DNA from: a virus
Lineage: Duplodnaviria; Caudoviricetes
IMG/VR virus record: IMGVR_UViG_3300042691_038938
Strand: one strand, 5' to 3'
Length of the DNA: 64,000 nt
A program made the position numbers and the translations under genes. Shown here one piece after another: positions 6,045 to 60,438 of the stretch; position 1 is the first letter of the stretch, and the number at the start of each line of letters is the position of its first letter. Under the pieces are notes generated by a model. That model was not told where the DNA came from, searched no databases, and saw only the letters and a list, made by a program, of their open reading frames with translations.

Positions 6045-6281
6045 ATGAAGACAAAGATTCACATCAATCAACATCATATTAGATCTAATAAGACCAGCGG
6101 TACTGATCTTCCTGTTGTGACTATAAAGCAGGGAAAGAAGAACACCTACTGCAATGAAGTGGAGATCATGGGACCTAGTAAAATAGTCTATGGTGGTCAT
6201 GGGTGTGATGCAAAAGCTTTACTTAGTTGTGGAGCTAGAGTAATTATTGAGACTGAAAGCGAAATTAAAATACTAAGATAA
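6045..6281 (+). CDS. conserved-type phage hypothetical protein (MKTKIHINQH...)
   Basis: ORF track start 5988 overlaps the promoter; the ATG at 6045 follows it. Confidence 0.65.
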   Translation: MKTKIHINQHHIRSNKTSGTDLPVVTIKQGKKNTYCNEVEIMGPSKIVYGGHGCDAKALLSCGARVIIETESEIKILR

Positions 6282-6282
6282 C

Positions 6283-7155
6283 ATGATAATCTATCAATCA
6301 AGAGGATTTGCAGAAGTATATGAGGAAGCTCTTTACGATCTAATCAAGCATCCTGAGTATACTACTCAACCTAGAGACATGAAGATCAAGGAGAACTGTG
6401 ACGTTGCTCTAGTAATTGAGGATCCTCTCTCTTGTCTATACACAAATCCAGAAAGGTCTTCCCAATCTAAATACATCGCTGCCGAGCTCCTATGGTATTT
6501 TATGGGCAGAAATGATGTTGAGTACATCTCAAAGTTTGCCAAGTTTTGGGAATCGATCAAAAACGATGATGATACTGTAAACTCATCGTATGGAAACCTT
6601 CTCTTTACTAACAAGAATGAGCATGGGTTAACTCAATATCAATGGGCATTAGAATCATTAGTTAAGGACAAGGATTCACGACAAGCGATCCTGCACTTTA
6701 ACTTGCCTATCCATCAGAGATACGGTAATAAGGATTTTGTTTGCACAGTATATGGGATCTTTCAGATTAGGAACAATAAGCTAAACTTTACCGTTCACAT
6801 GCGCAGCAATGACGTGATCTTAGGTCTTCCGACTGATGTTGCTTTCTTTGCGACTCTGCAGAGTCAGATGTTAAAACATCTAAGACACGAAGGTGGATAT
6901 ACTAATTTAGAGTTAGGCATATACACTCACATCGCGAACTCATTCCACGTTTACGAGAGACACTTTGATCTTGTTGAGCGAATGATCAAGCATAAGTTTG
7001 AGCCGGACTCAATTCCAAAAGTTGAGTGTAACTTAATTAAAACAGATGGCGCTCCGACATCAGCATTCAGTTACCTGTTTGATGTACAGGACAGGATCGT
7101 TGCAGCAACCGGCGATGACCTATTTGATTGGATCCTAACTAATTTGAACTCATGA
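6283..7155 (+). CDS. thymidylate-synthase-fold enzyme, probably dCMP hydroxymethylase-like (gp42-like)
   Basis: DFVCT catalytic Cys, MRSNDVILGLPTD with Asp at the Asn177-equivalent position, HVYERHF; these match T4 gp42 motifs as I recall them (DFMCT, MRSNDVVFGFRND, HVYSRHF). Confidence 0.75.
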   Translation: MIIYQSRGFAEVYEEALYDLIKHPEYTTQPRDMKIKENCDVALVIEDPLSCLYTNPERSSQSKYIAAELLWYFMGRNDVEYISKFAKFWESIKNDDDTVNSSYGNLLFTNKNEHGLTQYQWALESLVKDKDSRQAILHFNLPIHQRYGNKDFVCTVYGIFQIRNNKLNFTVHMRSNDVILGLPTDVAFFATLQSQMLKHLRHEGGYTNLELGIYTHIANSFHVYERHFDLVERMIKHKFEPDSIPKVECNLIKTDGAPTSAFSYLFDVQDRIVAATGDDLFDWILTNLNS

Positions 7156-7409
7156 AGAATCACATTAAAAGAATACTGATCACGATAGCTACGCTATCTT
7201 TAATCGCCTTAATATGTAACCTAACCTATGATTGGTCGGGACTGGACAAAAAGTTTGGAATGGAGTTCTCTTTCTTTCAATGGTATGCGATGGTGATACT
7301 CGCGAATCTACTCTTTCCAGGCAAAGACATTTTTAAACAACAAGAAGAAAAAAAAGATGACAACAAAGGACCTAAAATACCACGTGACATACCTTCGCAT
7401 GGCCTCTGA
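7152..7409 (+). CDS. small membrane protein
   Basis: Two hydrophobic segments; ATGA-coupled to the upstream gene. Confidence 0.6.
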   Translation: MKNHIKRILITIATLSLIALICNLTYDWSGLDKKFGMEFSFFQWYAMVILANLLFPGKDIFKQQEEKKDDNKGPKIPRDIPSHGL

Positions 7410-7776
7410 GTGGGCATCACTCTCTTGCTGTAAGCGAAAAAAGGTAGGCGCACTAATCGTTAAGGACGGTACGATAATCTCAGACGGATTTAATGGAACT
7501 CCTAAGGGGTTTCCAAATGACTGTGAAGACGCAGACGGCAACACTCATTGGTATGTTCTACACGCTGAGGCGAATGCCATGCTAAAGGTTGCTCGCTCTA
7601 CTCAAAGCACGGAAGGTGCGACCTTATATGTTACCTACTCTCCTTGTAAAGAGTGTTCAAAGATGATAGTCCAGTCTGGAATCAAGCGAGTGATCTATCG
7701 AGAGGAATACCGGGACCTTTCAGGAGTAAAGATATTAAGAGAGGCAGGAATAGATGTCGTTCAACTTTCAGTGTAA
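7357..7776 (+). CDS. dCMP deaminase
   Basis: VGALIV, GFNG, HAEANA and PCKEC zinc motifs. Confidence 0.92.
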   Translation: MTTKDLKYHVTYLRMASEWASLSCCKRKKVGALIVKDGTIISDGFNGTPKGFPNDCEDADGNTHWYVLHAEANAMLKVARSTQSTEGATLYVTYSPCKECSKMIVQSGIKRVIYREEYRDLSGVKILREAGIDVVQLSV

Positions 7777-15042: not shown

Positions 15043-15837
15043 ATGCCAGAATTAGCAGAGATAAAGATAATGGCGGACTACATCAATAAAGTCTGTCAGG
15101 AGAAGGATTTTACGAGCATCTCTTTCTCGGAGAGCGCACAGAGTAGAAAGTTAGGAATCACTCAACCCACTGACCTACAGATATTTAGGATTTCAGCTGA
15201 GTCTAGGGGCAAGGAGCTCATGCTCAGTCTCATTCAAGGAGGCGAAGTCTTTATGAAGATCTCCTTCTCAATGGGAATGTCGGGTCACTGGAGAGAGGTT
15301 CCTCCAGGATTTGAGCCTCCTAAGCACACGCATCTCCTATTTAATTACATAGGATTCGGATCCTTGTGCCTAGTTGACGTACGTCGATTCGCCAGATGGA
15401 AAGTAGTTGAAGACTGGTCCCAAAACCGTGGGCCCTGTCCAGTACACGATTTTACTGAGTTCAAGCACAACATCCTAGGAAACTTAGAGAAGCGAGAGTT
15501 TAATAAACCAATCCATCTTGTGCTCATGAATCAAAAGTATTTTAATGGAATAGGAAACTATCTCCGAGCCGAGATCCTCTTTCACGCCGATCAGGACCCT
15601 TTCATGGACGCTCGTACCGCTCTCTCAACAAATCCCGCAATCATTGAGCTTTGCGAAAGGCTTCCTAAAGAAGCATACGTTCTTGGAGGAGGTCAGCTAA
15701 AGGACTGGGAAAACCCATTTGAGGCCCCAGCTGGAGGATTTAATGAGTGGATGCAATGCTACGGTCGATCCAACCATATTGTGGACAAGAACGGTCGAAC
15801 CTTATGGTATCATGATTCCCAAGTCAAAACCAGTTAG
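15043..15837 (+). CDS. Fpg/Nei-family DNA glycosylase, NEIL1-like
   Basis: N-terminal PE catalytic motif, RGKEL, GMSG, H2TH motif QKYFNGIGNYLRAEIL, no zinc-finger cysteines, C-terminal DKNGRTLWY. Confidence 0.9.
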   Translation: MPELAEIKIMADYINKVCQEKDFTSISFSESAQSRKLGITQPTDLQIFRISAESRGKELMLSLIQGGEVFMKISFSMGMSGHWREVPPGFEPPKHTHLLFNYIGFGSLCLVDVRRFARWKVVEDWSQNRGPCPVHDFTEFKHNILGNLEKREFNKPIHLVLMNQKYFNGIGNYLRAEILFHADQDPFMDARTALSTNPAIIELCERLPKEAYVLGGGQLKDWENPFEAPAGGFNEWMQCYGRSNHIVDKNGRTLWYHDSQVKTS

Positions 15838-16048: not shown

Positions 16049-17643
16049 TGAGTGAAATCACACTGGGCTTTGAGCCTCGCCCACAACAGGTTCAGATCCT
16101 GGACTTTGTGAAAGAATCCATCAAGGATAAGAAAAAATTCATCATGATTGACGCTCCCACTGGAGTAGGCAAGTCATATGCGGCCATCATGATCGCGGAC
16201 TGGTACCGAAAGGAAATCACCAAAAAGGCCAAGGTAGACATAGTCACAAATACTAAGATCTTACAGGATCAGTATATTAAAGACTTTGAGTTTGCTGCAA
16301 ACCTAAAGGGTAAGAACAATTATTGGTGTCGTCGTCAGGGTATGGGCTGCGGAGATGCACAGATCATAAATAAAGCAAACGAGAACAAGTGCGAGCCCTG
16401 TCCACACAGGATGGCCCAGTCCAAGTTTCTACGCAGCCCCTTGAGTCTCACTAACTTTCACCTCATCACTACCTACTCGATGTACTCGCCTGAGATGATG
16501 ATCCAACGCAAGTCTAGGTTACTCATAATCGACGAGGCACACGCCTTTGAGGAGACCTATTGTGACTTCATCTCTTCAGTCTATTCTGAACGTAGCATCA
16601 GGTTACTAGACGTCTGGAGAGACTGGATGGAAAAGGACTTAGATGGAATCACCTCTCTCAACGAGCTTTCAGAGTGGACTAGAACAGTCCTGGTTCCATT
16701 ACTCGCACAGAAGGCTGAAGAGTTACTAAGCGAGGCTAAGGAAACTCGAATAAAGAAGAAAAAGATAGACTTGATCAAGAAAGCCGACCATGTCGACAAG
16801 TCGATGTGTAAGTATAACAGGTTCGTCAATGATAAGGAAAACTACAAGACTAACTGGACTTTTGAAAAGGACTTAGATCAGCATGGCAAGACTAGAATCT
16901 TAGTCGAACCTATCTGGGGAAACATCTACCTAAAGGACATGTTTTGGAACCAGTACGATCATGTGATATTCATGTCAGGTACGCTACTTGATAGGGAACT
17001 TATCTCATTCATCATGGGAGTCAATGAAGAAGAATCATCTTACATGGCTCTTCCATGTCCGTTCAAGGCTGAGAAGAGACCTGTGATCTACTTAAAATTC
17101 GGCAAGATGTCCTATTACCATAAGAAAGAGACCTTTGCTAGAGCAGTGCCGGTGATCTCTAGGATACTTGAGAAAAACCATGAGGTAAAGGGAATCATCC
17201 ACACTGCAAACTACGAGTTTAGTAACTGGATCAAGGCCTCAATCAAGGACAAACGACTCATATTTCACGACTCGGCCACTAGAGAGAAGTCATTAGAGAA
17301 TCACCTTACTTCCAAGTTAGAGACTGTCCTAGTCTCTCCGTCAATGATAAATGGAGTCGACTTGAAGGATGAACTCTCCCGTTTTCAGGTGATCCTAAAG
17401 GTTCCCTTTCCTAACCTAGTGAGCACCAAGATCAAGAAGAGGCTTGAATCCAAGCCAGAATGGTACAATTGGAAGACTCTAGTCGACCTCTTACAGGCAT
17501 ATGGTAGATCAATTAGAAACGACGAGGACTGGGCAGAAACGTTCATCTTAGACGAATGCTTCGATCAGGTGTTAAATAATAAAACGGTGCCCAAATATTT
17601 TTTAGAGGCACTAAAAATTAAAAAGCTAGGAAACAAGGCATGA
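16048..17643 (+). CDS. DinG/Rad3-family SF2 helicase
   Basis: Q motif PRPQQ, DAPTGVGKS, Cys cluster, DEAH, SGT, SPSMINGVDL, QAYGRSIR. Confidence 0.9.
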   Translation: MSEITLGFEPRPQQVQILDFVKESIKDKKKFIMIDAPTGVGKSYAAIMIADWYRKEITKKAKVDIVTNTKILQDQYIKDFEFAANLKGKNNYWCRRQGMGCGDAQIINKANENKCEPCPHRMAQSKFLRSPLSLTNFHLITTYSMYSPEMMIQRKSRLLIIDEAHAFEETYCDFISSVYSERSIRLLDVWRDWMEKDLDGITSLNELSEWTRTVLVPLLAQKAEELLSEAKETRIKKKKIDLIKKADHVDKSMCKYNRFVNDKENYKTNWTFEKDLDQHGKTRILVEPIWGNIYLKDMFWNQYDHVIFMSGTLLDRELISFIMGVNEEESSYMALPCPFKAEKRPVIYLKFGKMSYYHKKETFARAVPVISRILEKNHEVKGIIHTANYEFSNWIKASIKDKRLIFHDSATREKSLENHLTSKLETVLVSPSMINGVDLKDELSRFQVILKVPFPNLVSTKIKKRLESKPEWYNWKTLVDLLQAYGRSIRNDEDWAETFILDECFDQVLNNKTVPKYFLEALKIKKLGNKA

Positions 17644-18815
17644 AATACTTAAGAATAAGTTATCCACAGCTTAGAACAGAGGTCTTGTCTGGGCTTACTA
17701 TCTCAACTGCGCTGGTTCCTGAAGCAATCTCATTTGCTCTACTCATTGGAGTGTCTCCAACTGCTGGTATATGGGCAGCCTTCTTCATGGCATTATCCAC
17801 TTCCCTTTTTGGAGGCAGGCCTGCCATAATAAGCGGTGCGACTGGCGCGACTGCAGTCATACTAGCGGCCCTTGTTTCTCTTCATGGAGAAGATAATCTA
17901 TACCTTGCTGTGATTTTAGCTGGAGTGATCCAGTTAATCTTGTGGATTAGCGGAGGTTGGAAAGTATTCAAGACGGTTCCTAAGATCGTAATTTCCGGAT
18001 TCCTAATTTCACTATCGATACTAATACTTCAAAGTCAATTCAAGTATTTTAAGATAGGTGGACTTTCGAGTATCCAACAGGTAATAATGGTAGGGATAGT
18101 TGTAGTATCAGCCGGCTCAATGTATGTTTCCAGTAAAAGATTCAAATTTCCTCCAGCAATCGCCGCAATATTGATGGGATCAGTTCTTAGTTCTTTCTTT
18201 GCTCTTCCTCTAATACAGGATCTTTCTGCTATATCAAATCGTTTACCTGAATTAGTCACTCCATCAGTTTCATTAGAGTCTTTATTACTAGTCTTGCCGT
18301 ATTCATTAGGTATGGCAATTTCCGGTCTTACTGAATCTCTAATCGCAGTAGATGAAGTCTGTCATAAACTAGGAACCCCAAAGGGAAAAGATCCAAAGTC
18401 TAAAGAAACCTTTGCTCAAGGCATAGGTAATATAGTGAGCGGCTTTTTTACTTCAATTGGAGGCTGTGTCCTCGTAGGTCAGACTAATTTAAACGTCGCA
18501 GCTGGCGCAAAATATCGAGTATCATCCCTAATTGCGAGCCTAGGTCTCTTATTGATCATACTCATTTTTGGAAAGTATATTCAGCTAATTCCTTTAGCTG
18601 GACTCATAGGAGTAATGATAATTGTAGTCTATGAAACTGGCGATTGGTCAAAACTTAAGGATAAAAATAGAGTAAATATAGCAACTCTTATCGTGACGAT
18701 AGCCGCTTCGCTAATCACTCACAATCTTGCGGTAGGAGTCTTGTTTGGAAGTATCACATACTACGCAATAAAAAAGTTAGTAAAGAATAATGGCAAAGAA
18801 AAAGATCGAGGATAA
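17640..18815 (+). CDS. SulP/SLC26-family anion (sulfate) permease lacking a STAS domain
   Basis: LSGLTISTALVPEAISFA, GGRPAIISGATGA, ETFAQGIGNIVSGFF, GGCVLVGQT; many hydrophobic segments. Confidence 0.88.
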   Translation: MKYLRISYPQLRTEVLSGLTISTALVPEAISFALLIGVSPTAGIWAAFFMALSTSLFGGRPAIISGATGATAVILAALVSLHGEDNLYLAVILAGVIQLILWISGGWKVFKTVPKIVISGFLISLSILILQSQFKYFKIGGLSSIQQVIMVGIVVVSAGSMYVSSKRFKFPPAIAAILMGSVLSSFFALPLIQDLSAISNRLPELVTPSVSLESLLLVLPYSLGMAISGLTESLIAVDEVCHKLGTPKGKDPKSKETFAQGIGNIVSGFFTSIGGCVLVGQTNLNVAAGAKYRVSSLIASLGLLLIILIFGKYIQLIPLAGLIGVMIIVVYETGDWSKLKDKNRVNIATLIVTIAASLITHNLAVGVLFGSITYYAIKKLVKNNGKEKDRG

Positions 18816-50840: not shown

Positions 50841-52715
50841 CTATTCTATCTCTTCAGACTCTTCTTTATTAAAATCATCTTCAGATAACCTAGCGTCCTG
50901 GTTTTCCATGATTGGAGTTCGGATCCCCAATTCTTTTTGTAGGTTAAAAAAGTCAGACTCAATCGAGTCTGGAACCAGTTTCTTATACTCTGCAAAATTG
51001 GAATGTTTTATCGAGTCAAACACTTCCTCAGACTTTATAAAGCTTGGAAGCTCAACTATCTTAAACTCCTTCGATATCCTCAAAGGAATGTCTCTTTTTC
51101 TTATGTAATCTAATTGGATCGCATAGTCCTTCAATCGACGCGACGTCGTTCCCCACAGGATCGGCTCATAGTCGGGACGAAGTATCTTTATGATCTCTTC
51201 TAGGTTTCCTACAGAGACCACTTTTACGTCAGCGATTAGACTTGAATACTCCTGCTGAACCTTATTGAGCAACATCGTCGTGGTGGTTAGAGTGAGCGGG
51301 GACATCTTAGTCTGTCTCTCTCCCTTAATGGCTATAAAAACGACCTTTTTTCCGTTTTTCTCCTTCATTAACTTGGCTGACTTAATGTGGCCCATCGTCA
51401 CAGGTTGAAAAGCTCCGACTAGAATGTTTACCTCAGTGGGTTCCACTCTCTCTGCTGAGTTTTTTGCGAATTCCTTCTCACTCATGGCAGAAAAGTCTTG
51501 CGGCATTCCCAGGAACTGGCTGAAGCTTGGGAAAAGGCCTTCATACACTGCGTCCCCCATAATAATGTTCTTGATCTTCTGTACTATTAGATTGAGTTGG
51601 GATACTAGTTCCGGAGTAAAGAATCCTGCACTAGATTTCTTACGCACCTTTCTAAAGAAATTAAGTAGGATCTTATAAATCTCTTTATTTGTCTCGTTCT
51701 TACTGATTGAATCTACCACTTCAGGGTCCCCAATCAAGTCAACGTCCAATTCGAACTCAGGTCTCTTTAGGTAATCGGGAATCTCTAAGCTTAATCCATC
51801 GTACTTTTCAGAATACTCCTTCAGGAAGTCTTTGAACATAGAATTGATCAGCTTAATGTACTTTTCTTCGTATGTCTCGCAGTCCTCTATCTTCTTCTTT
51901 ACGTCCTCAATATCATACATCTCAAAGTGATTCATTAGATCGATCACAATCAACCATATGTAATCTTGGGAGGATGTGGATTTCTTTTGAGTGTTCTCAC
52001 CGACTCTCTTTTGAAAGAGCGGATCTACCATCTTTGCTAGGAAGACATCATGTTCAGCGTCGTCTCCATAAAATCGAAAGACGATTGTTTCTAATTCTCT
52101 ATCGTTAAGCTCGACTAGTGAGTCTGGATCCAATACTGAAAGCACATGCTTGGTGAAGGATTTAGTCTTAAATTTTTCTTCCAGTTCTCTAGGATCAGCG
52201 TAAACGAATTCAAGTATCTTAGTCTTCTGTTCATCGTCTAGGTTTCCTTCAAAGATGATAGGCTGAACGTCTACTTCTAGGTAGCTTGCCCATCTGCTCA
52301 ATTGATCCTTCGACTGTAGTGTTTCCAAGATGTTTCCAGACTCGTCCATTCTGTGAATGTAAGAGAGAACTAGGCCATTCTTTGGAGCTCCTACTTTTCT
52401 GCTAATCATTGAGTCTCCTCGACTAAAGAACTCAAAACCGAAAAAGAAGTTAGCTGGAATTCTCTGTCTCTTGTCCATCAAGAGCTCCTCGAAGTGTCTG
52501 ATTGCAGGATTGTAGTATTTCATCAATACTCTATCAACATAGGTGATCTCACCAGACTTCTTGAAGTATTTGAATGAGTCATCCTTTGTCTTTTTGACTC
52601 CAAAGAATGCACCGTCCACCTTTTCGTTAACGATCACGTATTTGTTTAAGAGGCCTGTCAAGAAGGCTTCACCCTTCTTTTCGTATATCTCTTTAAGATT
52701 GTTTATTCCTGCCAT
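50841..52715 (-). CDS. fusion of ATP-dependent ligase-like adenylyltransferase domain and HIGH-type nucleotidyltransferase
   Basis: N-terminal EKVDG (KxDG), GFEF, ETIVFR, AKMVD; C-terminal GAFQPVTMGH. Confidence 0.65.
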   Translation of the reverse strand: MAGINNLKEIYEKKGEAFLTGLLNKYVIVNEKVDGAFFGVKKTKDDSFKYFKKSGEITYVDRVLMKYYNPAIRHFEELLMDKRQRIPANFFFGFEFFSRGDSMISRKVGAPKNGLVLSYIHRMDESGNILETLQSKDQLSRWASYLEVDVQPIIFEGNLDDEQKTKILEFVYADPRELEEKFKTKSFTKHVLSVLDPDSLVELNDRELETIVFRFYGDDAEHDVFLAKMVDPLFQKRVGENTQKKSTSSQDYIWLIVIDLMNHFEMYDIEDVKKKIEDCETYEEKYIKLINSMFKDFLKEYSEKYDGLSLEIPDYLKRPEFELDVDLIGDPEVVDSISKNETNKEIYKILLNFFRKVRKKSSAGFFTPELVSQLNLIVQKIKNIIMGDAVYEGLFPSFSQFLGMPQDFSAMSEKEFAKNSAERVEPTEVNILVGAFQPVTMGHIKSAKLMKEKNGKKVVFIAIKGERQTKMSPLTLTTTTMLLNKVQQEYSSLIADVKVVSVGNLEEIIKILRPDYEPILWGTTSRRLKDYAIQLDYIRKRDIPLRISKEFKIVELPSFIKSEEVFDSIKHSNFAEYKKLVPDSIESDFFNLQKELGIRTPIMENQDARLSEDDFNKEESEEIE

Positions 52716-53300: not shown

Positions 53301-53308
53301 TATTTATT
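53301..53308 (-). promoter_or_regulatory. late promoter-like AATAAATA
   Basis: Recurrent motif overlapping the stop of the upstream gene. Confidence 0.6.
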
Positions 53309-53912
53309 AAGAAGAGACAGAGTTATTTATTAGACCATTCAACCTTGCGTTAAATTCAGCAACGCTGTCCTCATTGAAATGATTTACCATTTTGTCAAAC
53401 TCATTGTTCTTTGAAGAATCAGTAATCTGTGGTTTGAATTCTGAAAATATCCTTTCAAAGAGTTCCTTTTCGCTCTCTGCATTCTCAAAGTTTCCAAAGT
53501 AGTCTTTCTCTCTTCTAGTGATCTCAATCTCTTCAGCTCTCTCAACATATAGGACTTTGCTGTTCTGATAAAGGTCACTCATTAGGATCTTCTTAAACTC
53601 TTCCAATAACCGAATCGCGCCCATTCTCTCTCGATAGATCGACCACACATAGGCTGAGAAGATGCAACGATCAAAGACTAGGATGTGATCCTTTAAGAGA
53701 GTCTGATTGAGCTCAAGTATCGTAAGCACGTTCGCAATGCTAAAGTAATGAACTCCTGGCCCAGTCTCCTGATCCTTCATCTTCAAGGCTTCAATATATT
53801 TTGCGAATTGAAACTTGTAGTAATGAACCCTAGGATCAGTGTTCTGTTCAAGAAACTTTTCGATTAGAAAAGTCTTTCCGCTATGTCTATGGCCTTCTAT
53901 TATTAGTATCAT
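53307..53912 (-). CDS. P-loop nucleotide monophosphate kinase (thymidylate/dNMP kinase-like)
   Basis: IIEGHRHSGKT Walker A, VFDRCIFSAYVW (DR motif). Confidence 0.75.
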   Translation of the reverse strand: MILIIEGHRHSGKTFLIEKFLEQNTDPRVHYYKFQFAKYIEALKMKDQETGPGVHYFSIANVLTILELNQTLLKDHILVFDRCIFSAYVWSIYRERMGAIRLLEEFKKILMSDLYQNSKVLYVERAEEIEITRREKDYFGNFENAESEKELFERIFSEFKPQITDSSKNNEFDKMVNHFNEDSVAEFNARLNGLINNSVSS

Positions 53913-54502
53913 CTCTTTAATTCTATTCTTCTTGATTCTCCTGCAGTAAAACTGTGGAGCGATATCACCTTTGATTTATCCACTAGCTGCATGTTTAAAG
54001 TCATTAAACTACTCAATGAGGTTGCGGATCTTTGGATAGTCAAAACGTATTCATGGAAAAATTGCTGGTATTTCTTTAGCTGTTCTAATGAATCCTCATA
54101 TACTCTTATCTCTTTGATGGTTGGAGTTTTTTCTAACTCAGACTTAAGAATAAGGATCTTCTCGGTCTTTCTGCCCAAGAAGTAGCAGCGATCGAAGGAG
54201 ATACCGTATTTTTCTAATAGGTGATCGACACAATGCTTAAGCTCCTCTATCCTATGTGTGATTAGTATAGTTATTGCGGTCGGGTCCTTTGAAGCTCTTA
54301 GCCAATCATCGTATACTGGTTCAATTAACTGAATGTTATGGATTTCAGGATCCATTGAGCTAGGGTGATCGTAAAACGAATAAGGATCGGGAAAATCAAG
54401 TTCCGGATTGAGCCTTTCTACTGAGAATCGATCAGTGTAGCCTGGCATTCTAAACAGTGTTTCATCAAAATCAAACACAAAAATCTTAGTAATATCTTTC
54501 AT
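53909..54502 (-). CDS. HAD-superfamily phosphatase
   Basis: FDFDETLF motif I, ITHR motif II, K, YEDS motif IV; start moved to ATG 54502. Confidence 0.8.
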   Translation of the reverse strand: MKDITKIFVFDFDETLFRMPGYTDRFSVERLNPELDFPDPYSFYDHPSSMDPEIHNIQLIEPVYDDWLRASKDPTAITILITHRIEELKHCVDHLLEKYGISFDRCYFLGRKTEKILILKSELEKTPTIKEIRVYEDSLEQLKKYQQFFHEYVLTIQRSATSLSSLMTLNMQLVDKSKVISLHSFTAGESRRIELKR

Positions 54503-54515
54503 GATATATTTTATT

Positions 54516-54523
54516 GATAAATA
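54516..54523 (+). promoter_or_regulatory. late promoter-like GATAAATA
   Basis: Upstream of ATG 54546. Confidence 0.6.
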
Positions 54524-54545
54524 ATAAAAAGTTTTGATCTCTAAG

Positions 54546-55037
54546 ATGGGAAAATACATCAAGCTATTTGAGGACTATGAAAACGAACTAAAGAATTCGG
54601 ACGAAGAGACCTCTCACAACTGGACCGACATTCGTGATGCCGTCCAGATGAGACTGCCCTTCGTGATAATAGTCTTCAAGAACTCTGATTCATACCTATC
54701 TGCGTTGGACTCTGAACTGATCGGTGGAGACTACATCAAGCAAAAAGCCCTAATGAGTAAGGACGGAACGCTTGTTAAGTACCCTTCGATCTTCATGGTT
54801 GTCCAGGACGACGAGACCTTTAAGAATAAGATACCAAAGATATTCGATGCATTTAAGACTAAGGTGATCTTTTTGGGTAAAAAGGGAGACGACCAGATTG
54901 ACTGTTATTACTCAGATGGATCTAACGTACAAGCAGGTAATGAGATAGTGTCCTCCTTAGGAAAGGATGAGATGGACAACAACGACCACTTTGAGATAGG
55001 ATCAACTAATTACATGTTTGTTGACTTCGTCGGATAA
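54546..55037 (+). CDS. hypothetical protein with capsid-targeting-like leader
   Basis: MGKYIKLFEDYENE. Confidence 0.65.
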   Translation: MGKYIKLFEDYENELKNSDEETSHNWTDIRDAVQMRLPFVIIVFKNSDSYLSALDSELIGGDYIKQKALMSKDGTLVKYPSIFMVVQDDETFKNKIPKIFDAFKTKVIFLGKKGDDQIDCYYSDGSNVQAGNEIVSSLGKDEMDNNDHFEIGSTNYMFVDFVG

Positions 55038-59004: not shown

Positions 59005-60438
59005 ATGGAGGACAAATCAAAGAAAATAAAAAAGCTGGATCTAAAGCAGAATGCGATCAAGATCCTAATTAACTCGATATACGGAGCATTCGGTAACAAG
59101 TGGTTCTATTTTTACAATCCGGATATCGCTCAATCGATCACCCTTCAGGGTCAAGACCTAATAAAGTTCTCCATCAAGGCTGTGAATCACTATTTTCAAG
59201 AGAGATGGCACCTCGATAAGGAGCTGCACAGTCTACTTGGACTTGATGGATATACTATAAACAAGATAGATGATGTCGCAGCGATCTATACTGACACTGA
59301 CTCGATCTATGTACAGTTTGACTCTGCGATAGATTCGATAATCGGTGCAAACTTCACAAAGGAAGAGATCCTTAACATCTGTATCAATATCGACAAACAT
59401 CGACTCTCTAGTTATTTCGACCAGTGTTTCGAAAGATACGGAAAGATATTCAATACGAAGAACCGACTTAAATTCAAATTGGAAAACCTTTCTGAACACG
59501 GAATCTGGTTAAAGAAGAAGAACTATGCTATTCGAGTGGCATATGAACCCAATCCTAGCTATGAGACTATTCCTCAAGAGAAGAGATACCTTGTGATCAA
59601 GGGTCTCGAATCCATCAAGGGATCGTATCCAATCTGGGCCAGAAAAAAGCTTGAATCGCTTTACTCATTTATTCTAAATCGAGGTAAACGTCTCGACATT
59701 GAGAAGGACATCATTCCGACTCTTCTTGAGATCAAGAAAGAGTTCATGAGCCTGCATCCAGACGAGCTTGCATTCAACTATAAGATTAGGGTCTATAATA
59801 AATACGTAGCGAGTGAGGCTAAGCTCGACTTAAAGAAGGGCATATCAATATTCCCAAGAGCAGCTGCCATCTACAATCACACTCTAATCAAGACCAGTCT
59901 GACTGATCGCTATCCAAAGTTGAGAGAAGGTGACAAGATCAAGTTTTATTACTGTAATCCTGAAGAGAATGACGGTGGATTTGACGTGTTCGCCTATTCT
60001 CCAGGTTCTTATCCTGATGAAATCGTTCCCAAGATGGACATGAATCTGCAGTTCTTCTCACTAATCGTCGAACCCATCAATAGGTTTCTTTTTGCGATGA
60101 ACCTAGGTCAACTCGATCAAAACTTAAAAAGAGCAATTGAAGTGGTCACGATCAAGAGCAAGAAAGTTCTATCTCAAAACCTAACTCATCCTCTCTTTGT
60201 AGTAGATCAAGCTAGTCTACAATACGAGCCTGTGCCCGAGAAGTTTTGGACAACTATTGGTAATCCAGAGAAGGAGGTCGAGACGCAAGACTTTCAAGAA
60301 TATCTTAGCGTCATTACTCGATATGGTCTAAACTCAGTAATAGTCCCAGAGCCAGAGCTTGAAAAGTACATCAAGCGTCTCTCTAAAAAGAAGGAAAAGG
60401 TAGAGTCTGAACTTGAGGTAGAGGAAGAAAATGTTTGA
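59005..60438 (+). CDS. family B DNA polymerase, C-terminal half (split gp43)
   Basis: Starts at motif B (KQNAIKILINSIYGAFGN), SITLQGQ, motif C YTDTDS, KKNYA, IKGLE; no exonuclease domain or motif A. Confidence 0.9.
   Translation: MEDKSKKIKKLDLKQNAIKILINSIYGAFGNKWFYFYNPDIAQSITLQGQDLIKFSIKAVNHYFQERWHLDKELHSLLGLDGYTINKIDDVAAIYTDTDSIYVQFDSAIDSIIGANFTKEEILNICINIDKHRLSSYFDQCFERYGKIFNTKNRLKFKLENLSEHGIWLKKKNYAIRVAYEPNPSYETIPQEKRYLVIKGLESIKGSYPIWARKKLESLYSFILNRGKRLDIEKDIIPTLLEIKKEFMSLHPDELAFNYKIRVYNKYVASEAKLDLKKGISIFPRAAAIYNHTLIKTSLTDRYPKLREGDKIKFYYCNPEENDGGFDVFAYSPGSYPDEIVPKMDMNLQFFSLIVEPINRFLFAMNLGQLDQNLKRAIEVVTIKSKKVLSQNLTHPLFVVDQASLQYEPVPEKFWTTIGNPEKEVETQDFQEYLSVITRYGLNSVIVPEPELEKYIKRLSKKKEKVESELEVEEENV

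Follow-up and report, generated by a model that had tools for sequence, protein, structure and literature searches.

A thymidylate synthase homologue with the T4 dCMP-hydroxymethylase active site points to 5-hydroxymethylcytosine in the DNA of a freshwater T4-like phage

We find that a gene at positions 6283–7155 on the plus strand of a 64,000-nucleotide stretch of DNA from an uncultured freshwater T4-like jumbo phage (the window, by which we mean the whole stretch analysed) carries the active site of the T4 dCMP hydroxymethylase, and hence that this phage very probably puts 5-hydroxymethylcytosine (5hmC) in its DNA. Specifically, its 290-aa product is most likely a folate-dependent enzyme of the T4 gp42 type, a deoxycytidylate 5-hydroxymethyltransferase, acting in a T4-like precursor pathway that leads to 5hmC in virion DNA. 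The fold, the active-site residues, their conservation throughout the family and the presence of partner genes are direct observations; they are laid out below together with the other products that such an enzyme might make.

Results

A thymidylate synthase fold with cytosine-type matches

By database name, this protein is a thymidylate synthase (TS): it matches Pfam Thymidylat_synt (PF00303, E 1.7e-23), and the PHROGs families it hits are named just that. It fell far below all cut-offs of the NCBIfam thymidylate-synthase equivalogs, however, the best score being 66 bits where 327 would be needed. A sequence search of the PDB returned the CMP hydroxymethylase MilA (5.7e-20) and T4 gp42 (2.9e-19; 27% overall identity) at the top, the superfamily's two cytosine-specific enzymes, with E. 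coli ThyA behind both at ~1e-11. An AF2 model built from 96 input sequences reached a mean pLDDT of 97.8 and has the TS fold, as Foldseek gave a probability of 1.00 to MilA, ThyA and the T4 enzyme (dCH) alike. MilA ranked first (TM 0.76–0.79 over ~300 columns, C-terminal extension included), followed by ThyA structures and then by T4 dCH (TM 0.79 when normalised to the target).

Active-site residues and their conservation

A sequence-only reading of this DNA had proposed that the TS homologue bears Asp at the site of E. coli Asn177, and had pointed to three motifs. All three are there as written, namely DFVCT (residues 151–155), RSNDVILGLPTD (174–185) and HVYERHF (222–228), and the T4 gp42 motifs given for comparison (DFMCT, RSNDVVFGFRND and HVYSRHF) agree with the real gp42 sequence. 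The residue in question is D185, within LPTD. It aligns with gp42 D179, in a column where the chain of the PDB D179N mutant has Asn, and a MAFFT alignment with E. coli ThyA sets it on Asn177. D185 is invariant in 120 relatives at 60–92% identity, and among 139 cluster representatives at greater distance, 137 have the Asp, which argues against a chance substitution.

Beyond this residue, 13 of 14 key positions of T4 dCH are identical in the query: E60, W82, S94, Y96, R123, D145, C148, T149, S169, D171, D179, H216 and Y218 of T4 correspond to E68, W89, S101, Y103, R133, D151, C154, T155, S175, D177, D185, H222 and Y224, and the remaining one, V85, is replaced by Ile. The catalytic Cys (T4 C148, here C154) and the general-acid Glu (T4 E60, here E68) are invariant in the family. 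The ternary complex of T4 dCH defined a signature for water activation, in which a Ser/Thr-x-Tyr motif is combined with an Asp (or Glu) at the third position ahead of the catalytic Cys, and the D145N variant no longer formed 5hm-dCMP (PMC6400193), making this Asp the determinant of hydroxymethylation. The query has D151 three residues before its Cys as well as S101-S102-Y103; among the 139 cluster representatives, the Asp and the Tyr are kept in all (139/139) and the Ser in 138. As to the sugar, Ser167 and Arg126 mark a deoxyribose substrate, with Ala and Lys in MilA instead (PMC5175136), and the query has the deoxyribose-type pair (S175 and R133, equivalent to T4 S169 and R123).

Further published rules concern E. 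coli positions 177, where Asn to Asp shifts the substrate from dUMP to dCMP, 143, where Leu to Asp or Glu accompanies non-methyl products, and 169, where Asp to Asn marks the flavin-dependent 5-hydroxy-dCMP synthases (all PMC13326640). By every rule set out in the three studies (PMC13326640, PMC6400193, PMC5175136), the query reads as a hydroxymethylase of dCMP. We compared it at six positions (143, 146, 147, 165, 169 and 177 in E. coli numbering) with an alignment of reference enzymes comprising T4 gp42, E. coli ThyA, RB69 gp48, the Xp12 5-methyl-dCMP synthase, the ThyA of the related contig G002, and two dUMP hydroxymethylase references. Of the latter, the SPO1-like one is a gp29 homologue of 383 aa that has no annotation in its record and was taken as a dUMP hydroxymethylase, and the M6-like one comes from Pseudomonas phage Ab18, whose TS homologue we take to be of that type. 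The query reads D, C, T, M, D and D at the six positions, as does T4 gp42. The corresponding residues are L, C, H, Q, D and N in both E. coli ThyA and the canonical ThyA of G002; D, C, N, N, D and N in the SPO1-like and M6-like enzymes; E, C, T, M, N and D in RB69 gp48; and N, C, P, L, D and D in the Xp12 synthase. By this comparison the query fits the hydroxymethyl-dCMP type only. All six positions are unvarying in the 120 relatives, and the combination DCTMDD recurs in 119 of the 139 nearest full-length cluster representatives.

The phylogeny that the sequence-only reading had called for separates the query from canonical TS, from Xp12 and from the clade of the dUMP hydroxymethylases. In a maximum-likelihood tree of TS homologues rooted on canonical ThyA, a clade with a support of 98 contains all Asp143 enzymes including the query, and leaves the canonical synthases and the Xp12 methylase outside; within it, the dUMP hydroxymethylases form a subclade of their own (support 99) that excludes the query. 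The query, its relatives and a homologue from the uncultured megaphage LR756500 group with T4 gp42, Xp15 and Enterococcus phage nattely at a moderate support of 84. Since the deep branches are long and weakly resolved, the tree agrees with the residue test and is not independently decisive. Signature and phylogeny do not agree throughout: phage G gp319 sits among the dUMP hydroxymethylases despite its cytosine signature.

A T4-like neighbourhood with a dCTPase gene

The window spans a T4-like replication and structural region. It encodes the C-terminal part of UvsX, a gp41-like helicase, gp47- and gp46-like nuclease subunits, topoisomerase II subunits, the C-terminal half of a DNA polymerase, a primase and a gp20-like portal protein. 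The TS homologue lies in a series of genes on one strand with short gaps, in the order gp47, gp46, a 78-aa ORF, the TS homologue, an 85-aa ORF, a dCMP deaminase and a 135-aa ORF, the last of which had no match in the Atlas. The 78-aa ORF (6045–6281, plus strand) is conserved, matches phrog_8676 (function unknown; 1.1e-20) and stops one base short of the hydroxymethylase gene; it was also gene-called on L124, a locus retrieved by an exact-protein look-up. L124 shares 12,408 identical bases with the window and reaches 9 kb farther on the upstream side.

This upstream extension contains a homologue of the T4 gp56 dCTPase (155 aa, L124:4548–5015, E 1e-22), located 4.1–4.5 kb before the start of the window. 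Two IMG/VR contigs, G001 (176 kb) and G002 (207 kb), are syntenic with almost the whole window, and their TS homologues are 74% and 59% identical, respectively, to the window protein. A gp56-like gene occupies the syntenic place in both of them and in three more contigs (G003, G006 and G007), and another four loci have one at their edges. The closest contig (G005, 87% identity) has no gp56 homologue, because an insertion of 7.8 kb pushes the expected site past the contig end. Homologues of gene 42 and gene 56 together are a hallmark of cytosine replacement in T4-like genomes. A megablast search with 25 kb revealed no close relative among GenBank phages.

The adjacent dCMP deaminase and the supply of dTMP

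A dCMP deaminase had been claimed two genes downstream of the TS homologue, and it is real: the gene at 7357–7776 (plus strand, 139 aa; PF00383, 5e-25) encodes a deaminase of the short phage type. It matches the dCMP deaminase of cyanophage S-TIM5 (PDB 4p9c) at 8.8e-41 with 142 bits and T4 cd at 1.9e-24 with 89 bits. The accompanying suggestion, that it might route the product of the TS homologue to a modified dUMP, fared less well: given that the deaminase is of the classical type, supplying dUMP is a likelier role than converting a modified nucleotide. Judged by its sequence, it probably acts at the dCMP branch point as a source of dUMP, as in T4.

Where, then, would dTMP be made? The search for a separate thyA or thyX, likewise proposed at the outset, gave a mixed answer. 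Neither turned up in the window, nor in the closer relative G001, which is 70% complete, and at the G001 site syntenic to the ThyA gene of G002 the gene is absent. G002 (81% complete), however, encodes a canonical ThyA as well (290 bits), and in LR756500 (462 kb) a ThyX gene is present in addition to the Asp-type homologue. In these two genomes, the Asp-type homologue is thus a second, different enzyme rather than the dTMP synthase.

Metagenomic surveys offer a further line of support. Asp177 is enriched on metagenomic contigs with modified cytosine (PMC8670742), and 70% of modified-cytosine contigs, versus 6% of unmodified ones, have a dCMP-family deaminase no more than 3 kb away from an Asp-type TS homologue (bioRxiv 10.1101/2024.12.05.627091). 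Together, the two studies lend the reading independent statistical backing.

Other possible products

The sequence-only reading had left the product open between 5-hydroxymethyl-, 5-methyl- and 5-hydroxy-dCMP. A dCMP-specific C5 transferase is borne out by residue, fold, phylogeny and pathway context, and the choice of product narrows to the hydroxymethyl compound. Of the rival products, the one that survives best, although we consider it improbable, is 5-methyl-dCMP, made by an Xp12-type dCMP methyltransferase and turned by the deaminase into thymidine nucleotides, such that a separate TS would be unneeded. Its appeal lies in the gene arrangement: in Xanthomonas phage Xp12 a dCMP-family deaminase directly follows an Asp177-type TS homologue, reminiscent of the ~200 bp between the two genes on the same strand here, and many Asp-type TS homologues linked to deaminases produce 5mdCMP (bioRxiv 10.1101/2024.12.05.627091). 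That neither ThyA nor ThyX was seen in the window or G001 leaves it some further room. However, the verified Xp12 enzyme has N, P and L at positions 143, 147 and 165, as opposed to D, T and M in the query and every one of the 120 relatives, and the D145N result with T4 dCH (PMC6400193) ties the Asp at the first of these to hydroxymethylation. The Xp12 branch also falls outside the 98-supported clade of the query, the deaminase is only distantly related to its Xp12 counterpart (32 bits only, against 142 and 89 to S-TIM5 and T4 cd), and the relative G002 has a canonical ThyA of its own.

Marginally less probable still is a scenario in which 5hm-dCMP is made and then largely deaminated to 5hm-dUMP, leading to DNA with 5-hydroxymethyluracil (5hmU) or a derivative instead of, or besides, 5hmC. 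The adjacency of the hydroxymethylase and deaminase genes would suit it, and seven metagenomic dCMP-family deaminases gave 5hmdU from 5hmdC nucleotides in vivo; the same study, however, attributed the natural role of such deaminases to 5mC phages (bioRxiv 10.1101/2024.12.05.627091). Against it further stand the nearness of this deaminase to characterised dCMP deaminases, the gp56-like dCTPase, which suits cytosine replacement, and the fact that no genes for 5hmU processing were recognised.

We regard as very unlikely a flavin-dependent 5-hydroxy-dCMP synthase of the RB69 gp48 type, which would be the start of an ether-linked glycosylated cytosine. RB69 gp48 and DLP3 gp80 (Lee et al. 2026) share with the query the TS fold, the orientation toward dCMP (Asp at 177) and an acidic residue at 143, and the large glycan island of the phage would fit a glycosylated base. 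Those enzymes, however, bind flavin, carry the diagnostic D169N and have lost folate-site residues, whereas the equivalent of Asp169 in the query, D177, is unchanged in all 120 relatives, and W80, G173 and Y209, lost by RB69 gp48, are all retained. Equally far-fetched is a uracil or ribonucleotide substrate, be it for an ordinary or divergent TS, a dUMP hydroxymethylase or, in the manner of MilA, a CMP hydroxymethylase with a free metabolite as its product: the database name of the family and the top structural rank of MilA, C-terminal extension included, speak for it, but the query has Asp rather than Asn at 177, T and M where dUMP enzymes have H and Q or N and N, fails every NCBIfam ThyA cut-off, combines Ser175 with Arg133 (deoxy-type) in place of the Ala and Lys of MilA, and is encoded within the replication and recombination block of a lytic phage.

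Residue by residue, a canonical ThyA has Asn177, His147, Gln165 and Leu143, which in the query are replaced by D, T, M and D; an SPO1/M6-type dUMP hydroxymethylase has Asn at 177, 147 and 165, where the query has D, T and M, and belongs to the separate, 99-supported clade.

A candidate nucleotide kinase and the search for glucosyltransferases

For phosphorylation of the product, the sequence-only reading had nominated an NMP kinase at 53307. The ORF at 53307–53912 (minus strand, 201 aa) is tentatively a dNMP kinase of the TMPK-like P-loop type. Its translation contains a Walker A sequence, GHRHSGKT, as well as a DR motif, it matches phrog_761 'thymidylate kinase' weakly (1.4e-5), and JGI names its relatives thymidylate kinases. 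An AF2 model (pLDDT 78) found thymidylate kinases as its best Foldseek matches (TM ~0.58); a sequence search of the PDB returned no match. The nomination is therefore plausible as regards a TMPK-like dNMP kinase, and the ORF is a reasonable candidate for a putative 5hm-dCMP kinase. The gene upstream of the ORF encodes a HAD phosphatase that faintly resembles polynucleotide-kinase phosphatases, so that the pair may instead have a role in RNA repair.

Neither a gp1-type dNMP kinase (PF21448) nor the T4 beta-glucosyltransferase (PF09198) had a match in the relatives G001–G004, and phmmer searches with T4 gp1, alpha-gt and beta-gt found nothing in the readable part of the window, in G001 or in G002. 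The steps after hydroxymethylation would accordingly differ from those in T4 and rest on the weakly supported kinase. A gp1-type kinase and glucosyltransferases are characteristics of the T4 pathway, not of the enzyme family.

The megaphage LR756500 offers an instructive comparison. Its TS orthologue, 52% identical to the window protein, is followed 1.4 kb downstream by a homologue of T4 beta-glucosyltransferase (PF09198, 6.7e-23), is directly preceded by a TMPK-like ORF (PF02223; weak, with an E of 0.006 that is below the cut-off), and has an NTP transferase 1.6 kb upstream. This link to a beta-glucosyltransferase cassette supports a 5hmC-producing role of the clade. We considered homology between the TMPK-like ORF of LR756500 and the kinase candidate at 53307–53912 and rejected it, as the two are not homologous.

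Discussion

How would the 6283–7155 enzyme and its partners act together? In a mechanism modelled on T4, Cys154 would attack C6 of dCMP, Asp185 would read and protonate the N3/N4 face of cytosine, and the one-carbon unit would come from methylene-tetrahydrofolate. A water molecule held by Asp151 and Ser101 would then add to the exocyclic methylene, replacing the hydride transfer of the synthases, and yield what we infer to be the catalytic product, 5-hydroxymethyl-dCMP. Upstream of this step, the gp56-like dCTPase would convert dCTP to dCMP, to be shared between the hydroxymethylase and the adjacent deaminase, with the latter forming dUMP for dTMP synthesis via a phage or host ThyA. Downstream, the TMPK-like kinase at 53307–53912, if 5hm-dCMP is its substrate, together with host NDP kinase would carry 5hm-dCMP on to the triphosphate, and 5hmC would enter virion DNA through the phage polymerase.

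Could 5hmC be decorated further? In a lineage without T4-type DNA glucosyltransferases and gp1 kinase, this part may fall to transferases encoded in an 11-kb island for nonulosonic-acid glycans that the phage itself carries (29.5–40.7 kb), a speculative idea to which we give little chance. If true, it would represent an undescribed DNA hypermodification with an acidic nine-carbon sugar. A lesser alternative is naked 5hmC, made using a new, TMPK-like 5hm-dCMP kinase.

Among the closest known systems is T4 gp42 (EC 2.1.2.8; PDB 1B49/1B5E/6A9A), which has in common with the query the fold, 13 of 14 key residues, the D-x-x-C and S-x-Y elements and the cytosine-specifying Asp. The likeness extends to the genomic surroundings (uvsX, gp41, gp46/47) and to the gp56-like dCTPase and dCMP deaminase in the genome of the window phage. 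In contrast to gp42 with its 246 aa, the query has 290 aa and a MilA-like C-terminal extension of ~50 residues, and the gp1-type kinase and alpha- and beta-glucosyltransferases of T4 were not found in the lineage of the window phage. MilA from Streptomyces rimofaciens (PDB 5JNH/5B6D) is the best PDB match in both sequence and structure, over the full length, and has Asp at 143 and 177. However, its Ala176 and Lys133 confer a preference for ribose and it serves antibiotic synthesis, whereas the query is deoxy-type and its gene lies in a phage replication module. The homologue in LR756500.1 has an identical signature and belongs to the same subclade of the tree; unlike the window lineage, which has no beta-glucosyltransferase, that megaphage combines its TS homologue with the kinase-like ORF, NTP transferase and beta-glucosyltransferase homologue, and has ThyX in addition.

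5hmC in phage DNA is a well-known anti-restriction device, and T4 is the textbook example of an Asp177-type TS homologue working alongside a dCTPase and a deaminase. Screens of metagenomes have already put this principle to use (MetaGPA 2021; Lee et al. 2026). With the kind of enzyme, its diagnostic residues and their metagenomic use all published, the gain here is incremental. What is specific is a widespread freshwater family of T4-like jumbo phages with a core of gp42, gp56 and deaminase homologues and without the T4 kinase and glucosyltransferases. Nucleotide modification goes unmentioned in a 2025 paper in Arch Virol that deals with a new lineage of aquatic jumbo phages.

For this family of large phages, our reading predicts that cytosine is swapped for 5hmC, which would bear on host range and on encounters with defence systems (restriction, CRISPR and modification-dependent nucleases), on the recovery of such genomes by different sequencing chemistries, and on enzyme mining. 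C/G-containing palindromes occur at a median observed/expected ratio of 0.95–0.99 in the window, G001 and G002, an indirect sign that agrees with protected DNA but is too weak to be given weight. The reading also corrects a systematic mis-annotation, as hundreds of metagenomic copies are labelled thymidylate synthase: we retrieved more than 860 metagenomic homologues of the 6283–7155 protein, on contigs of up to 275 kb. Near-identical DNA occurs in sequencing runs of 18 studies, and 24 public runs contain the stretch.

Related enzymes in other phages

Where else does the cytosine-hydroxymethylase signature occur? We find it complete (D143, T147, M165, D169 and D177, in E. coli ThyA numbering) in five of five proteins from other phages. 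Those of Enterococcus phage nattely, Xanthomonas phage Xp15 and Bacillus phage G are annotated 'thymidylate synthase', that of Bacteroides phage BF503P1 is annotated deoxycytidylate 5-hydroxymethyltransferase, and that of a Manatee Spring siphovirus 'pyrimidine hmase'. Despite its full cytosine signature, in the tree gp319 of phage G clusters with the dUMP hydroxymethylases.

In the uncultured megaphage LR756500.1, ThyX (276524-278152) lies within one open frame of 577 aa, and the Pfam model matches it in two pieces. Because these pieces lie ~1 kb apart within a single frame, the sequence suggests an inserted element, for example an intein.

Genomic context of the predicted hydroxymethylase gene

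Upstream of the predicted hydroxymethylase gene, the short gap between the gp46 gene and this thymidylate synthase homologue is an insertion hot spot. The closest contig, G005, holds 7.8 kb in this gap, including an ORF of ~1188 aa on the opposite strand, and the syntenic contig G002 holds ~4.7 kb (71.8-76.5 kb).

At 15043-15837 (+) the window encodes a DNA glycosylase of the Fpg/Nei family that carries a NEIL1-type DNA-binding motif (PF01149, PF09292, PF06831), and the gene is also kept in G005, G002 and a further syntenic contig, G001. A link between this repair glycosylase and the predicted modified cytosine of the same phage may deserve attention. Further downstream, between a helicase gene on one side and topoisomerase II genes on the other, lies a gene for a sulfate-permease-family membrane protein (17640-18815, +; PF00916, 7.8e-37). 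G001 and G002, which are elsewhere syntenic with the window, have no counterpart of this gene, which may have an auxiliary role specific to the strain.

On the minus strand, a HAD phosphatase gene (53909-54562; HAD_SAK_1 at 1e-8, with a faint PHROG match to polynucleotide kinase) overlaps the start of a TMPK-like kinase gene (53307-53912) by 4 nt. The two products could constitute a split Pnkp-like RNA-repair unit, rather than acting in nucleotide metabolism. The same strand encodes a 623-aa protein (50841-52715), the sole match of which is a borderline cytidylyltransferase-like one at residues 430-485; its gene is also kept in G001 and G002.

The family B DNA polymerase is encoded in two separate parts. 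Its exonuclease/N-terminal part lies at 5285-6703 of L124, a locus identical to the window over 12,408 bases and reaching 9 kb further upstream; this part is ~2.4 kb before the window start. The C-terminal part, ~62 kb from the N-terminal one, is found at 59005-60438 of the window.
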